From Nanobdellota archaeon (GTDB lineage Archaea > Nanobdellota > Nanobdellia > SCGC-AAA011-G17 > ARS1403): DNA of 34,226 bases. The number at the start of each line of letters is the position of its first letter. The first letter of the stretch is position 1. The DNA is taken from assembly GCA_002688395.1 (NCBI GenBank), contig NZCU01000014.1, positions 1 to 34,226 of the forward strand. Direction: 5' to 3'. Below the pieces are notes generated by a model. That model was given only the letters and a program-made list of their open reading frames with translations. It searched no databases and was not told the origin of the DNA. The position numbers were made by a program, and so were the translations under genes. Below, in pieces: positions 1 to 12,699 of this stretch.

Positions 1-93
1 GGATTAAAATATACAACACCTGTTTCGATTTATTATCCTGAAAGTAGAGAATATAAAATTGGTAAATTAGTCATAACTGCGGACATAAATTAA
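1..93 (+). CDS. 3' end of an upstream ORF (partial, runs off the window start)
   Basis: Frame 1 is open from base 1 to TAA at 91-93 (ends ...GKLVITADIN). It lies directly upstream of the pilin-like gene. Thirty residues are too few to assign a domain. Confidence 0.3.
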   Translation, partial: GLKYTTPVSIYYPESREYKIGKLVITADIN

Positions 94-5700: not shown

Positions 5701-6308
5701 GCAATGGAAATGATCAAGTAAATGATTTCTTCTGTAATGGAAATAATATTTGTACTGTTAGAACTGGTAGTTGTAGTGGAGGTAATGTATGTAGGAATGG
5801 CGCTTGTGTTTCAGTAGTTGCTCAAAGCGTAAGTAGTGTAAGTAGTTCTGATGGTGGGGATACAACTGATGCTTCTATTTTAGATCAACAATTGGCAGCT
5901 GAGGATGAGATTGTGGTAGAGGAAATAGAACCTCTTCTTTTTGAATCGGAATTAGGAGACACTTTGTTAGTAGAACCAAGAGAATTGAGTGGTCTTTTAG
6001 ATTTGTCTTCTTCTGATTTTGTATCTTCTGCTGTGTCTGATAGAGAAGTTGCAGAAATGGAAATTACAACATATCTTAGTTGTCCTACACAAGATATTGT
6101 TTTCTTTTTAACAAAAGAAAGATCTGAGTCTGTTATGGACTTTATTGGTTTTAGGTGGAGAGGTGATGCTTGGTATATGAGTGTTTTGTATTTAAACGAC
6201 CGAGGAGAAGCTCTAGCATGCAATTCTAGAACTTCATTCGGAGGTTTAGTTAGCGAAGAAGCACATATTAGAGCAAGAGAGCTATGTTCATGTGGAGAAC
6301 CGAGATAA
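2694..6308 (+). CDS. Giant (1204 aa) secreted Cys-rich protein with thrombospondin type-3-like Asp-rich calcium-binding repeats
   Basis: TTG start at 2694 preceded by GAGAGGTG. Sec-type signal peptide SSAKKLLILILLVMILPIVHSQSS. DxDxDG-type repeats are present (YDNDGDGVCNEG; DPDNDNTDGDNTNDGSEDPDNDGINNYQEY). There are many Cys and an internal hydrophobic stretch around aa 315-380. Confidence 0.7.
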   Translation: MSSAKKLLILILLVMILPIVHSQSSDSVISGSTAGGTADAFAGSAYDNDGDGVCNEGRDFYRDRNINSFDTGCTIPAVRDFCPGTPSDETAHRSGDRAGCSDNQLTGFQNYWTLKIEKDKIRPKTVKTNWLVDQRQGIRVYQPITFLQNDAFLNDDEKINYRGVSVRCDSGRGVVRTEGLRDVETSDVDFSRETGGGRVDVSSARTGVVYIEESYGSVSVSDINRTDLNADLVIRLRQQAEELVRPKDVRNYRGDFGIDEIEFECTATINQCRTRIEVVDGQRVEQEGCSPIFPPETDEFLLVVPLDSVAIQAPEVFLDAGIATATAILSVTNDVKPKLRDLYGFLRNNCLRAIGIVFTSKLFSVVPGANELADFIWFGPKKLQNLGIFYEGSFIVSGRSMCAATACPRDWCRPLNWHPGGKESGSKSLADLTSTYNDKGEVVSTQPIQNSLILSTACGCVSGILAKVYEIEAIAINWRTCMLRAKDSNEFIGECDRYLKEGICEFVIREVGTFDNFDLGLFSRFKDKGGGGETTDPLIEATQAKGALDRPKGAFGDAISKGKKKSEDFAKDELEVIGSSGAKGILGYKDHALARTFCSLAVYKELPDLSTLQSYDLNRISIESTTTSNWDIKEAYKGEGGRSVWGYEISWMIVAGKENLRYNVYLESAGGARRQLHTDVLPNVGDFDSDFVEITDSIEYTNLCFDLRGDARRIRCFPAGSGSQGGLLEEFGFGGGINDRDKDRLPDEWEVRFNCDSSRTKFNTPEDERACKELLSNSVDNRLDPDNDNTDGDNTNDGSEDPDNDGINNYQEYRTNGHPNVASRTVDGSTVQSSCRAGFDDFEIIGGDNIPNINSISKKFIPGETLSVRLNNVNIGEGNTVSERDIKVRVDVKGPRLFSLDQFVDIPFNQASVNNNPIWNIPTGRNAPDTEVYEVVVQLVVPGKFNLREDACVDSGGVLAEKTKKIIIYNPNSGSCIDSDEGVKFNVAGACVDNTGVVRGDSCNGNDQVNDFFCNGNNICTVRTGSCSGGNVCRNGACVSVVAQSVSSVSSSDGGDTTDASILDQQLAAEDEIVVEEIEPLLFESELGDTLLVEPRELSGLLDLSSSDFVSSAVSDREVAEMEITTYLSCPTQDIVFFLTKERSESVMDFIGFRWRGDAWYMSVLYLNDRGEALACNSRTSFGGLVSEEAHIRARELCSCGEPR

Positions 6309-7111
6309 TGGAGCTTTTTAAGAAGAGTTTTAGTTTGTTAATTAATAATAAACAAAAAGTTTTTACTAGTGTAGGTGTTGATTTTATATTTTATATTTTA
6401 GTTTTGTTATCTGGATTTTATTTTTTTAATAAATTTTCTGAAAAGTTTGAAATAATAAATAATAATATTAGTAGTGTTGTTTTGGCTGATGAAGAACTTT
6501 CACAAGGAGCTTTACTTAAATTAAATGCTGTCTCTACTGCTTTGACAGATATGTTGTTAATTGTTATTGGTTATTTTATTTTAGTTTTAATTTTATGGGG
6601 GATCTTTAATGGTGCTGTTTGGTTAATATGTAAAAATATTATTAAAAATAAGAAACCTTTTGATGGTTTTGATATAACTTTTTTATCAAGATATTATATA
6701 TTAAGTTTATTTTGGTTTTTGATAACTGGAATTCTTTTCTTTTCTTTTTATAATTATAATTCTTATGTTTTATCTTTGGGAAATATTGGAATTTTAATTG
6801 TTAATTTACCAATTTTATTAATATTATATTTTGGAACTATTTCTTTTTCTTTGTTTTTTGTAAATGGAAAAACTATTAAATCTTTTACGAATTGTTTTAA
6901 ATTAGGATTAAGTAAAGTTTCTTTTTTAATTGCTTTTGTTTTATTTATTTTAATATTTTATTTTTCTGAATTTATTTTATTATCTTTAGGGAAGTTAATA
7001 AATTCTAATGTTTTTTCTATTTTAGGTATTATTGCTTTCTTGTTAATTATGGTTTGGTTTAGAGTTTATTTATTATTACTTGTAGAAAAATATGCGGGAG
7101 ACAGGATTTGA
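6308..7111 (+). CDS. Polytopic integral membrane protein (about 6-7 TM), unknown function
   Basis: I prefer the ATG at 6308, which overlaps the upstream TAA (TAATG), over the track start at 6284. The sequence is very hydrophobic and Phe/Leu/Ile-rich. The last 18 nt, including the TGA, lie inside the convergent tRNA-Leu. Confidence 0.6.
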   Translation: MELFKKSFSLLINNKQKVFTSVGVDFIFYILVLLSGFYFFNKFSEKFEIINNNISSVVLADEELSQGALLKLNAVSTALTDMLLIVIGYFILVLILWGIFNGAVWLICKNIIKNKKPFDGFDITFLSRYYILSLFWFLITGILFFSFYNYNSYVLSLGNIGILIVNLPILLILYFGTISFSLFFVNGKTIKSFTNCFKLGLSKVSFLIAFVLFILIFYFSEFILLSLGKLINSNVFSILGIIAFLLIMVWFRVYLLLLVEKYAGDRI

Positions 7112-7218
7112 ACCTGCGTAGGCACTAAGCCATCAGGTGTCTTACAGAAACGTCCTAAGCTTAGTCTTCTAAAATACAATTTTAGAATCTGACCCGTTTT
7201 CCGCTCCGGCACTCCCGC
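7093..7218 (-). tRNA. tRNA-Leu(UAG), class II (long variable arm), with two introns
   Basis: Minus strand: acceptor GCGGGAG/CTCCCGC, T-arm GCAGG-TTCAAAT-CCTGT, 15-nt variable region with a GGC/GCC stem, discriminator A. Removing 7161-7188 (28 nt, position 30/31) and 7139-7153 (15 nt, canonical 37/38) gives a perfect anticodon stem UCAGG/CCUGA and loop CUUAGGA. The canonical intron folds as helix / 3-nt bulge GGA / 4-bp CUUA:UAAG / 3-nt bulge ACA. Confidence 0.8.
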
Positions 7219-7284
7219 TTAATAGAAGAAGAGATGAAGGTAATTTAAAAAAGTTTTTATATCATATTCAATTACATAAACAAT

Positions 7285-7664: not shown

Positions 7665-9041
7665 ATGGACCAAATTATGGAGATATCAAGGGGAGATTTT
7701 TGGAAATATGAGAAGCCTCTATTTATTTTAAAAAAGAGGATTTGGGGAGGTGGTTACTTTTACTTTCCTAGAAAACTTGCTAGAGAATTACGTTTGGATC
7801 GAGATTGTGTGCTGTTATTTAGGATAGCTTCTGCTAAATCTTTATTTTGCTTGAGTAAAATTTCTGAAGTAAGAAAAGATTATGTTTTAAAGATAAGTTC
7901 TGATATTCTTAAAAACTTGAGAATTAAAACATCTAGTTTGCTTAAATTAGAGTTCTTACAAATTAAGAAAAGAGGTGATAAACCAAAACTTCACATTATG
8001 AAGAATCATATTGATGTTATTAGGTATATTCCAGGAGGTAATGAATTTGTTTGTTTTAAAAGACCAGGGAATTGGGTTACTGTTTATTATCTAAAAGGAA
8101 GGAGTTCTTCTAATTTGACAATAAGAAGATTTGTTAAATTAAATCAGATATTTCTTTGGAATATTGGTTTTTATTTGGCAGAAGGTGAAAAAGCTACGAA
8201 TTATAGATTTGGATCATCTAATGCTGAAATAGATTTAATTAAATTGTTTAGAGATTGTGGAGAGAAATGTTTTGGTTTAAGTAGAAATGATTGGTATGCA
8301 GAACTGAGATTAAAGTATGGTAATGAAGTAGCTGTTAAACACTGGATTGATAATCTTGGTCTAAATAAAGATAAAGTTAATGTTAGAATTGTTAAAAATA
8401 AACCTCCTGAAACTGAATTTGGAAATTTATCTTTGGTTTTTTATAATAGGATTTTAGGGGAAATTAACAAAAATATTATTTATGATTTAAAATTTATAAG
8501 GAATTTGAGTAGAGTGGAGAAATTGTACATTCTTCGTGGACTTGAAGCTGGAGATGGTACCGTACTAAAAAATGGTTGCTTAGAAATGGGTATAACCTGT
8601 CAGAAAAAAGAAATGGAGATTGTGAAGTATTTACTTTCTTCTGTTTGTTCTAAAGATCCATTTATAAGAGAATATTGGACTTGTGATAAGGTTTGGTTTG
8701 TTTTCCATAGAGGTATTGAAATGGCTAAAGAATACATCTTAGATGGACATTTTTTGGAGCATACTAACAGACGGAAAAGACTATTAAATTTGTATAAATA
8801 TTATAAATTTAAGGAACTTTTTTGTTTATGTTTGTTATTGAATAGAAAAAATACTGTCTGGGATTTAACTAAAAATATGGACCTTACATATCCTGCAATA
8901 AATGTAAGATTGAAAAATTTAACAAAAGATGGTTTTATAATTAACAAGAAAGATAAACTCTTTAAAAATAATAGGTCCTATGATATTAGAAGGTTTTATT
9001 TAACTAATAAAGGAAAAGAGTATCTTAATCATTTTCTTTAA
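7665..9041 (+). CDS. LAGLIDADG homing-endonuclease-like protein with N-terminal AbrB/SpoVT-like segment and C-terminal wHTH
   Basis: Two LAGLIDADG-type motifs are present (NIGFYLAEGEK; YILRGLEAGDGTV). The N-terminal YFYFPRKLARELRLDRDCVLLF is AbrB-like. The C-terminal NVRLKNLTKDGFIINKK is wHTH-like. Confidence 0.75.
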   Translation: MDQIMEISRGDFWKYEKPLFILKKRIWGGGYFYFPRKLARELRLDRDCVLLFRIASAKSLFCLSKISEVRKDYVLKISSDILKNLRIKTSSLLKLEFLQIKKRGDKPKLHIMKNHIDVIRYIPGGNEFVCFKRPGNWVTVYYLKGRSSSNLTIRRFVKLNQIFLWNIGFYLAEGEKATNYRFGSSNAEIDLIKLFRDCGEKCFGLSRNDWYAELRLKYGNEVAVKHWIDNLGLNKDKVNVRIVKNKPPETEFGNLSLVFYNRILGEINKNIIYDLKFIRNLSRVEKLYILRGLEAGDGTVLKNGCLEMGITCQKKEMEIVKYLLSSVCSKDPFIREYWTCDKVWFVFHRGIEMAKEYILDGHFLEHTNRRKRLLNLYKYYKFKELFCLCLLLNRKNTVWDLTKNMDLTYPAINVRLKNLTKDGFIINKKDKLFKNNRSYDIRRFYLTNKGKEYLNHFL

Positions 9042-10929: not shown

Positions 10930-11202
10930 ATGAGTATTTATCAATTAGAAAGAGATTTGGCTGAATTTATTTTACCTCCTAAAGTGGAAGATTTAGATTT
11001 TGAGGAAGTTGCATCTTATAGTGATGAGTTATTTGAAGCATTACAAAGAGGATGGATTGGTTTGAAGAAATTTTATGAGGATAAAAGAAATTTGTATGGA
11101 GATGAAACTATAATGAGATTAGATGGTTTTAGTAATGATGATTGGGGTTTGTATAAAATGCTTTTAACTCCAGAAATAACAGAAGATCTTATTTTACCTT
11201 AG
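10930..11202 (+). CDS. Small acidic hypothetical protein
   Basis: 90-aa ORF starting 1 nt after the tfb stop. I recognise no motif. TAG stop. Confidence 0.4.
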   Translation: MSIYQLERDLAEFILPPKVEDLDFEEVASYSDELFEALQRGWIGLKKFYEDKRNLYGDETIMRLDGFSNDDWGLYKMLLTPEITEDLILP

Positions 11203-12089
11203 ATTTTAATTTCCATTAAGTCTTTAGCTGCTTTTGTGTTTTTGAAAACTTTTTTTGCTTCGTTTTCTAATTCTTTCACATCTCTATATCTTTGAGAAAA
11301 ATGTGTTAATATTAATTGTTTAACTTTTGCTTTTTTTGCTATTTTAGCTGTTAATTCTGTTGTTAAGTGTTTTCTTTTTCTAACTAAATCCTTTAATTCT
11401 TTTTTCCATGTACATTCAGTTATTAGTAAATCTGAGTTTTTTGCAATAATTTCTGCGTTTTTACAAGGAGCAGTGTCCATGATAATTGTTACTTTTTTAC
11501 CCTTTCCTGGTATGGTTGCTTTTTTTGCTAAAATTTTATGTCCTTTGTAAGTTATATTTTTTCCTTGTTGTAACTTCCCTAAAATTGGATGTTGTTTTAA
11601 GTTAAATTTTTTTAAATAATCTAAATTTATTTTTATTTTATCATTTTCTATTAAAGAATAGGCTAAACATGGTACAATATGGTCTAAAGTAATAGCTTCT
11701 AAATTAAATGATTTTCCTTTGTAGAATATTCCTGAAGATATTTCTTTTACTTTGAATTTTATAGTTTTCTGTACTGCGATGCCGGAAAGCATGTTTTTTA
11801 GGTATTTTTTAGTGCCTTTTGGGCCGTAAATTTCTAATGTTTTCCTATAATCATTAGCTCTTAGATTTTGTAGTAAACCAGGAATGCCTAAAGTATGATC
11901 TCCATGCCAATGAGAAATTAATAATTTAGTTGTTTTACTTGGAGAAATGTTGGCTAATCTAAATTGTCTTTGAGTTCCTTCTCCACAATCTATTAAAATC
12001 CCTTCACCCTCATATTGTAAAAATATAGATGAATGGTTTCTAGTTTTCGTTGGAATCATCGAAGATGTTCCCAAAAATGTAATTTTCAT
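11199..12089 (-). CDS. rnz: Ribonuclease Z (tRNA 3' endonuclease), metallo-beta-lactamase fold
   Basis: HxHxDH motif in LISHWHGDHTLGIPGLL. Length and layout are typical of short-form RNase Z. Confidence 0.85.
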   Translation of the reverse strand: MKITFLGTSSMIPTKTRNHSSIFLQYEGEGILIDCGEGTQRQFRLANISPSKTTKLLISHWHGDHTLGIPGLLQNLRANDYRKTLEIYGPKGTKKYLKNMLSGIAVQKTIKFKVKEISSGIFYKGKSFNLEAITLDHIVPCLAYSLIENDKIKINLDYLKKFNLKQHPILGKLQQGKNITYKGHKILAKKATIPGKGKKVTIIMDTAPCKNAEIIAKNSDLLITECTWKKELKDLVRKRKHLTTELTAKIAKKAKVKQLILTHFSQRYRDVKELENEAKKVFKNTKAAKDLMEIKI

Positions 12090-12141
12090 AATATATATTA
12101 AATTGATAAGATTTTTAAATACTTTTGTTTAGTTATTGGAT

Positions 12142-12699
12142 ATGGTTAAAAAGAAAGAAGATATTATTGAACTTAAGAAGAAGATAGTTGGAGTGCTAGA
12201 AAAAGAGAGGGTTGTTGGAGATGTAAGTAATGAAAGTACTTTAATTTATGATAAAAGTAGATTTGGAGAGAGAGTTGGAGAGAAATTTCAGTATTCTTTA
12301 GTTGAAGGTTTGTTTTTATTAGATACTAAAAGAATGAATATTAAAGATGGAAGGGGTAAAAAGGTTAAATTTGATGATTTTTTAAAAAAAGCTAGGAGAT
12401 TTGATAAGAATTTTTGGGTTAAATACTGTGTTTTTAAAGATATGAGAAGTAGGGGTTATGTTGTTAAAACTGCTTTGAAGTTTGGAGCTGAATTTAGGGT
12501 TTATGGAAGGGGTATTAAACCTGGAGATGATCATGCTAAGTGGATTGTTTATCCTGTTCATGAATCTAATACAACTACTTGGTCTGAATTTGCTGCTAAA
12601 AATAGAGTAGCTCATAGTACTAGGAAAAGATTGCTCGTTGGTGTGGTTGATGATGAAGCAGAAGTATCTTATTGGGAGATATCTTGGATAAGGCCCTGA
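12142..12699 (+). CDS. endA: tRNA-splicing endonuclease (short, alpha-type subunit)
   Basis: The C-terminal catalytic domain is RGYVVKTALKFGAEFRVY...HAKWIVYPV. ATG at 12142, with TTG at 12136 as an alternative. Confidence 0.85.
   Translation: MVKKKEDIIELKKKIVGVLEKERVVGDVSNESTLIYDKSRFGERVGEKFQYSLVEGLFLLDTKRMNIKDGRGKKVKFDDFLKKARRFDKNFWVKYCVFKDMRSRGYVVKTALKFGAEFRVYGRGIKPGDDHAKWIVYPVHESNTTTWSEFAAKNRVAHSTRKRLLVGVVDDEAEVSYWEISWIRP

Follow-up and report, generated by a model that had tools for sequence, protein, structure and literature searches.

The window analysed here, a stretch of 34,226 nucleotides corresponding to contig C14 of the assembly of a Nanobdellota archaeon, carries on its minus strand a tRNA-Leu(UAG) gene (7093–7218) with a precursor body of 126 nt and no encoded CCA. 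The gene was recognised from its match to the Rfam tRNA model RF00005, from the fold of its spliced product and from its orthologs. Very probably it is a functional gene with two protein-spliced introns of the EndA type, one at the non-canonical position 30/31 and one at the canonical position 37/38. The same window encodes a tRNA-splicing endonuclease, EndA (12136–12699, plus strand).

The assembly amounts to 630 kb (approximately 0.63 Mb) in 46 contigs, has a GC content of 29% and is 73% complete. Homologues of its EndA group the genome with metagenome-assembled genomes labelled Candidatus Woesearchaeota or Nanoarchaeota, and the host is a tiny, uncultured DPANN archaeon of the Woesearchaeota type.

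Architecture of the precursor and of the spliced tRNA

An initial annotation of the window had described a gene of 126 nt with an acceptor stem, a T arm and a long variable arm, without mentioning that it lies on the minus strand. All of these elements are present: an acceptor stem GCGGGAG/CUCCCGC followed by the discriminator A, a T arm GCAGG-UUCAAAU-CCUGU and a variable region of 15 nt, UGGCUUAGUGCCUAC. Numbering the precursor such that position i corresponds to window coordinate 7218-(i-1), its RNA reads, in order, 5' exon GCGGGAGUGCCGGAGCGGAAAACGGGUCAG, intron 1 AUUCUAAAAUUGUAUUUUAGAAGACUAA, middle exon GCUUAGG, intron 2 ACGUUUCUGUAAGAC and 3' exon ACCUGAUGGCUUAGUGCCUACGCAGGUUCAAAUCCUGUCUCCCGCA. 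The 5' exon (7189–7218) holds tRNA positions 1–30, that is the 5' strand of the acceptor stem, the D arm, G26 and U27–G30, and aligns base for base to a Leu(CAA) paralog in the same genome and to intronless orthologs. The middle exon of 7 nt (7154–7160), G31-C32-U33-U34-A35-G36-G37, bears the anticodon UAG and recurs as a GCUUAGG block in all Leu(UAG) orthologs. The 3' exon (7093–7138) spans positions 38–76, with A38, CCUGA (39–43), the variable arm, the T arm, the 3' strand of the acceptor stem and the discriminator A, and its variable and T arms are those of the Leu(CAA) paralog.

Intron 1 comprises 28 nt (7161–7188, precursor 31–58, minus strand), lies at position 30/31 and has a relaxed H-B-h motif. 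A 4-bp helix, G25G26U27C28:G53A54C55U56 (GGUC:GACU), is accompanied by the bulge A29G30A31, a 9-bp hairpin pairing positions 32–40 with 44–52, and a trailing A57A58G59 with the predicted cut AA|G. With one bulge, a 4-bp helix, one flanking helix and the second cut in an unpaired stretch, the element is of the relaxed HBh' type, and no outer helix is seen other than a possible G24:C32 pair. The motif is contained in the minimum-free-energy fold of the precursor, with a pair probability of approximately 0.55.

Intron 2 comprises 15 nt (7139–7153, precursor 66–80, minus strand) and lies at position 37/38. Here the helix is C60U61U62A63:U75A76A77G78 (CUUA:UAAG), flanked by the bulges G64G65A66 and A79C80A81 and by an inner helix of 2 bp (C67-G74 and G68-U73). 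The canonical bulge-helix-bulge (BHB) with an excision of 15 nt, as annotated initially, is present in all its elements; it is a strict hBHBh' motif, the outer helix of which is the anticodon stem once intron 1 has been removed.

Cutting 2|3 within each bulge joins exons of 30, 7 and 46 nt into a product of 83 nt with the anticodon stem and loop UCAGG-CUUAGGA-CCUGA. ARAGORN folds this in-silico spliced 83-mer into a perfect tRNA-Leu(tag) cloverleaf, which bears out the proposal that the stem UCAGG/CCUGA and the loop CUUAGGA appear only after both excisions. The unspliced gene is more difficult for tRNA finders. ARAGORN missed it at default settings and, with introns allowed (-i), detected it in a misfolded form called 'tRNA-Pyl (cta) i(38,32)'. 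RF00005 gives the unspliced gene 42 bits (gathering score 29; E = 8.5e-6 across the whole window), at the price of inserts of 33 nt in the anticodon loop and of 23 nt in the variable region. Chance does not account for this match, and the same architecture recurs in many related genomes.

Intron presence and absence among Leu genes

A BLAST search with the window gene against its own genome and 60 relatives returned full-length matches that contain introns, from many families of the order, and 43 distinct Leu-gene sequences were extracted and parsed. In the Leu(CAA) paralog (C16:11146–11230) the identical variable and T arms follow directly behind the anticodon stem. From this alignment CCUGA must be positions 39–43, and the UCAG following G26 must be positions 27–30. 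The orthologs provide further states of the same gene. Seven are intronless (L044, from the genome with the closest EndA, and L021, L024, L064, L065, L018 and L058). Four carry the 37/38 intron alone (L012, L019, L027 and L050) and have a contiguous stem strand, such as UCAGG or AUAGG; L027 has the window gene's own stem, UCAGG/CCUGA, without intron 1. Three carry the 30/31 intron alone (L004, L030 and L022), with a contiguous GCUUAGGACCUGA where intron 2 would sit. Both introns are found in the window gene, in L003 and L005 from the same genus, and in L007, L008, L010, L014, L015, L026, L028 and L079, while L052 and L069 have a third intron, in the D-loop. In every one of these states the exons are contiguous exactly at the predicted junctions. 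The UAG anticodon and the exact junctions of both introns, as annotated initially, are accordingly matched by intron-free orthologs. Furthermore, the anticodon stem covaries among the orthologs (UCAGG/CCUGA, ACAGG/CCUGU, CUAGG/CCUAG and CUGGG/CCCAG), and the 30/31 intron is also found in Leu(UAA), Leu(CAA) and Leu(AAG) genes.

The Rfam model scores the intronless L021 at 57.6 bits, with anticodon UAG, compared with the 42 bits of the unspliced window gene. In the one-intron ortholog L004 it forces a mismatched fold resembling that of the window gene.

The helix of intron 1 has been maintained through sequence change. Exon positions 25–28 and intron positions -6 to -3 are paired in 82 of 84 cells from 21 genes, a count in which kinship is not fully controlled. 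Double changes are seen at 27:i-5 (U-A, A-U and C-G) and at 28:i-6 (C-G, U-A, U-G and A-U). None of 10000 shuffles reached 82, and sliding the partner strand by 1–3 nt left 6–43 of the 84 cells paired. Eighteen of the 21 genes have an AGA or GGA bulge, and in 14 the intron ends in AA ahead of G31 or A31. The relaxed motif without an outer helix, present in the sequence as first described, is thus conserved in its register among the orthologs. The intron-2 helix (32–35:i-6 to -3) is paired in 83 of 92 cells from 23 genes, again with kinship not fully controlled; it varies little and so carries less information than that of intron 1.

Four Leu-type genes were found in the assembly by BLAST, and the window gene is the only one with a UAG anticodon. 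CTA is as common as CTT in the long open reading frames (ORFs) of the genome (1589 and 1604 codons, respectively), and a Leu tRNA with a UAG anticodon is therefore needed.

Introns in the D-loop occur in the Leu genes L031, L062, L052, L069, L103, L112 and L118, where G18-G19-U20-C20a (GGUC) is the exon strand of the 4-bp helix. In L031, for example, GGUC:GGCU is accompanied by an 8-bp hairpin, and L103 has GGUC:GACU in a mini-intron of 13 nt. The splice unit of these introns obeys the same rule as that at 30/31.

Inspection of the relatives' Leu genes also revealed a form in which two alternative 7-nt anticodon exons stand in tandem, each with its own helix-plus-bulge splice unit. The order is AAG then UAG in L114 (the same as L028/L100, genome G047), L118 (the same as L069, G022), L115–L117 (G159–G161), L112 (G134) and L113 (G142). 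Other pairs are CAG/UAA in L103, also from G047, and CAG/UAG in L108 (the same as L052, G002). A pattern search recovered CUAAGG...GCUUAGG genes from 8 of 240 genomes of the order, and a reversed-pattern control recovered none. Both alternative first introns have all four helix pairs and an inner helix of 3–7 bp in seven of the eight dual-gene genomes. In the long 37/38 intron that an AAG product would need, the spacer and the sequence downstream of the second cassette form a 5-bp helix in six of seven cases, G142 being the one without it; this helix covaries (AUCGG:CCGAU versus AUCAG:CUGAU). In family f14, none of the five dual-gene genomes has a stand-alone AAG/GAG Leu gene among the matches listed and six non-dual genomes have one, counting only listed 22-nt matches of a pattern that is too loose in that it also matches intron tails. 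The genome G134 (family f28) has both a dual gene and a stand-alone AAG/GAG Leu gene. The distribution of the dual genes is in part complementary to that of stand-alone AAG genes. The dual-cassette genes are candidates for mutually exclusive tRNA splicing, by which one Leu gene would give two isoacceptors, and no description of such genes was found in the literature searched. The second cassette is absent from the window gene.

Upstream of the window gene, at -34 to -23 from the 5' end of the tRNA, a TATA-like AT-rich box, TTTTTTAAATTA (7241–7252, minus strand), may represent the promoter, a weak signal at 29% GC. Two bases past the discriminator a run of five T (7086–7090, minus strand) is a likely transcription stop. 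The 3' end of the gene is overlapped by 19 nt, on the opposite strand, by an ORF encoding a membrane protein of 275 aa (6284–7111, plus strand), the last codons of which (..AGDRI) are antisense to the acceptor stem. A second ORF, 447 nt upstream of the tRNA gene (7665–9041, plus strand, 458 aa), had no Pfam match at E <= 0.01. In a tblastn search with the five LAGLIDADG-type ORFs of the window, such an ORF was found beside only two of 21 loci with a 30/31 intron (the window gene and L020). This neighbour test is crude, with short flanks and fast-diverging proteins; as it stands, a general link between homing endonucleases and the 30/31 intron is not supported.

The splicing endonuclease and competing explanations

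EndA is 185 aa long if translation starts with the ATG at 12142 and 187 aa long if it starts with a TTG at 12136; it is the only EndA in the window. In agreement with the initial annotation, which placed it at 12142–12699, it is a short enzyme of the alpha type with both the N- and C-terminal domains (PF01974, 94 bits, and PF02778, 41 bits). Among PDB structures it is closest to the catalytic alpha subunit of Nanoarchaeum equitans (3iey_A, 4.7e-34) and to the alpha4 enzyme of Methanocaldococcus jannaschii (1a79, 5e-31). Residues 16–187 align to residues 1–171 of the M. jannaschii protein, over 172 residues with a lone gap of one residue, and the aligned catalytic triad of Y123, H133 and K164 is intact (context FRVY...DH...STRK). 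The acidic L10 loop, VVDDEAEV, is of full length and aligns to IVDADGDI of M. jannaschii; the corresponding loop of N. equitans alpha is two residues shorter and less acidic. The loop would provide the tetramer contacts, and on these features the enzyme appears to be alpha4-like. In the alignment, the 6-residue basic insertion that N. equitans has between Tyr and His is absent from the window EndA and from 58 relatives. A C-terminal Trp (..ISW..P) is conserved, which is common to the broad-specificity enzymes of N. equitans, crenarchaea and ARMAN-2 (PMC3488258).

A search with PF01974 in the own genome and the 60 relatives found one full-length EndA per genome in 57 of 61 cases, including genomes assembled in 1–2 contigs (G010, G015 and G043). 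A second subunit, for which the initial annotation had suggested a search, was not found, and neither was a beta paralogue, in the own, 73% complete genome (PF01974 and PF02778) or in the relatives (PF01974). A beta subunit of the N. equitans kind would have been seen, because the window EndA as query matches N. equitans beta (3iey_B) at 5.8e-13. With no second subunit in the genome or the relatives, the single alpha-type EndA would have to process the relaxed site. A broad specificity of this enzyme toward the relaxed 30/31 site is therefore a reasonable proposal, and the site itself argues against a strict specificity. A gene for the RtcB ligase is located elsewhere in the genome (C24:29442–30755, 543 bits).

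The EndA gene is divergent from, and 46 nt apart from, a gene on the minus strand (11199–12089) encoding a metallo-beta-lactamase protein (Lactamase_B_2, 2.5e-15) with a weak tRNase Z signature (Lactamase_B_4, tRNase Z endonuclease, 3.9e-4, below the cut-off). The two may form a small tRNA-processing gene pair. In several relatives (G001, G004, G057, G028 and G016), too, a distance of 4–11 kb separates EndA and the Leu(UAG) gene.

A number of observations weigh against a functional gene spliced at two sites by the resident enzyme. The completeness of 73% leaves room, in this one genome, for a further nuclease or for a second Leu(UAG) gene. EndAs of the alpha4 type are classically strict-BHB enzymes (PMC3488258), and none of the Lys/Arg-bearing insertions near the active site that have been linked to relaxed specificity, known as CSL (L1), ASL (L2) and the N. 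equitans loop (L3), is found in the window EndA. Regarding the RNA, intron 2 has an inner helix of no more than 2 bp, and thermodynamic folding assigns its BHB a pair probability of 0.02–0.05, with or without intron 1. The folding result says little, because the same program also misfolds the mature tRNA and returns no cloverleaf.

The incomplete genome would equally accommodate a decaying pseudogene, its insertions being junk and the functional Leu(UAG) gene lying within the missing 27%, and the failure of default tRNA finders to detect the gene or read it correctly points the same way. However, every stem is perfect once the gene is spliced, the splice motifs are in exact register in both insertions, and the T run that would serve as terminator lies downstream. 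Furthermore, the two-intron layout, with compensatory changes, is conserved in relatives, several of which are 95–97% complete (G016 and G023). We consider decay of the gene very unlikely. The ARAGORN call raises another explanation, namely an amber suppressor or 'tRNA-Pyl' that has the anticodon CUA and a single intron of 32–33 nt past position 37. Infernal likewise places one 33-nt insert, leaving the loop UUCUAA, but with posterior probabilities of 0.4–0.6 in the 3' strand of the anticodon arm. Such a fold comes with a variable region of 25 nt and a U27-U mismatch; a variant in which the variable arm is normal has an A31-C39 mismatch instead. Its implied 5' cut falls inside the 9-bp hairpin, and its helix 32–35:i-6 to -3 would be UUCU:UAAG, with two of four pairs. 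No ortholog has CUA, and the UAG block is contiguous with both stem strands in the orthologs. TAG terminates 55 of 394 long ORFs and is hence a working stop codon. The one-intron fold with a different anticodon, which the initial annotation had named as the outcome that would speak against it, is thus proposed by Infernal and ARAGORN but does not hold up as a refutation. Based on the mismatched stem, the 25-nt variable region, the use of TAG as stop and the lack of a CUA ortholog, the suppressor or pyrrolysine identity was rejected, and we find it scarcely credible.

Production of two tRNAs from the window gene by alternative splicing, as proposed above for the dual-cassette genes, would be in line with the location of the second anticodon cassette inside 'intron 1' of those relatives. 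Intron 1 of the window gene, on the other hand, does not contain any G followed by [C/U]U-NNN-R able to pair with C39, and its helix-plus-bulge unit is present in a single copy, which leaves this explanation with next to no probability.

For the Leu(UAG) gene with two EndA-type introns, the following route of splicing may be envisaged. In the precursor, the helix 25–28:53–56 would form together with the AGA bulge and the 9-bp hairpin within intron 1, and EndA would cut after the second base of each bulge, at G30|A31 and A58|G59. RtcB would join G30 to G59 and thereby complete the anticodon stem, which would then serve as the outer helix of the intron-2 BHB for cuts at G65|A66 and C80|A81. The three exons (30 + 7 + 46 nt) would end up joined by RtcB, and CCA would be added. 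Intron 1 interrupts the anticodon stem, on which intron 2 depends for its outer helix; intron 1 is therefore probably removed first, an order suggested by geometry only. The relaxed site would presumably be accepted by a homo-oligomeric alpha EndA. Helix 25–28 starts directly past the D stem; stacking of the D stem on this helix might make up for the lack of an outer helix, a speculation in which we have low confidence. If true, it would account for the exact location of the intron, at 30/31, in every one of these genes. Taken together, it is possible, although we put it forward tentatively, that an EndA without the CSL, ASL or N. equitans loop cuts a 30/31 motif devoid of an outer helix, that the D stem could substitute for this helix, and that the window gene is the single-cassette form of a dual-isoacceptor system.

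Other disrupted tRNA genes and relation to known systems

Further tRNA genes of the same genome appear to be disrupted as well. A Leu(UAA) gene (C27:~6425–6575, minus strand), of which Rfam and ARAGORN see the 3' end only, has one or two D-loop insertions and a 37/38 intron, and no 30/31 intron. A Gly(UCC)-like gene (C16:4540–4648, plus strand) has an insert of 18 nt near 26/27 and a 37/38 intron of 16 nt; the first insert, inspected by hand, does not fit the H-B-h motif (two of four helix pairs). A tRNA gene of 129 nt (C18:10776–10904, plus strand) needs more than one excision. Similar canonical introns of 33 nt, ..CUUUUAGAAAAAG.. and ..GCUUUAGAAAAGC.. followed by ACAAAAGGAGU, are found in the genes for Arg(CCU) (C16:8261–8368, minus strand) and Glu(CUC) (C42:3185–3292, plus strand). 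Such likeness between the introns of two different tRNAs suggests that introns have spread from one tRNA gene to another. A partial tRNA match of 30 bits (C21:17455–17507, plus strand) covers model positions 9–63 without the acceptor ends and could belong to one more tRNA that is disrupted, split or permuted. The order is rich in Leu genes that have the anticodon AAG (A34), among them one in the own genome (C16:15477–15562), L022, L031 and many 'CTAAGGACC...' matches. A34 is unusual among archaeal tRNAs, and the abundance of these genes raises the question of how CUU and CUC are decoded.

Multi-intron archaeal tRNA genes with non-canonical BHB or HBh' introns were reportedly described by Marck and Grosjean in 2003 and by Sugahara in 2007 and 2008. 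Multiple introns, introns at non-canonical positions and both strict and relaxed BHB motifs are well-documented features of archaeal tRNA genes, and 30/31 is listed among the known non-canonical sites (PMC4090602). The window gene resembles the multi-intron tRNA genes of Crenarchaeota (Thermoproteales), Nanoarchaeota and ARMAN in its 3-nt bulges 4 bp apart, in the combination of a canonical 37/38 intron with a second one elsewhere, and in the relaxed HBh' motif without an outer helix (PMC4090602). Unlike in those systems, the host is a Woesearchaeota-type DPANN archaeon, and the 30/31 intron is lineage-wide, polymorphic and found in several Leu isoacceptors (UAG, UAA, CAA and AAG). The enzyme differs too, being a single alpha subunit here, as opposed to the (alpha-beta)2 or epsilon2 enzymes found there. 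Position 30/31 also serves as an EndA-type processing junction in the split tRNA-Lys(CUU) of N. equitans and Staphylothermus, whereas that tRNA is assembled in trans from halves encoded at separate loci and the window intron is in cis and 28 nt long (PMC4090602).

Kaneta et al. 2018 (PMC5829648) had already connected EndAs of the alpha4 type, from several lineages of DPANN archaea and among them one Woesearchaeota and one Pacearchaeota genome, with a larger number of non-canonical and multiple introns, and credited the association with disrupted tRNAs to an 'L3' loop. By the alignment made here, the window EndA and its 58 relatives depart from this account in keeping the Tyr-to-His spacing of M. 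jannaschii. The window gene is thus a well-supported new example of an already known archaeal gene type. Modestly new, on the sequence comparisons made here, would be that the 30/31 intron is polymorphic across a lineage and common to Leu isoacceptors. The same would hold for its apparent occurrence with an enzyme without the loop insertion that Kaneta et al. 2018 (PMC5829648) invoke.

The way in which tRNA finders miss the gene, or call it a CUA suppressor or 'Pyl', can lead to the false conclusion that a Leu decoder is missing or a stop codon recoded in DPANN genomes. Such disrupted genes could in part lie behind the 'missing' tRNAs that a 2026 survey of complete Nanobdellota genomes reported. 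Furthermore, the locus provides a comparatively supported case in which a lone alpha-type EndA without known specificity loops would have to process a relaxed non-canonical site. The rule that alpha4 means strict BHB only is thereby made testable by the window gene and its EndA.

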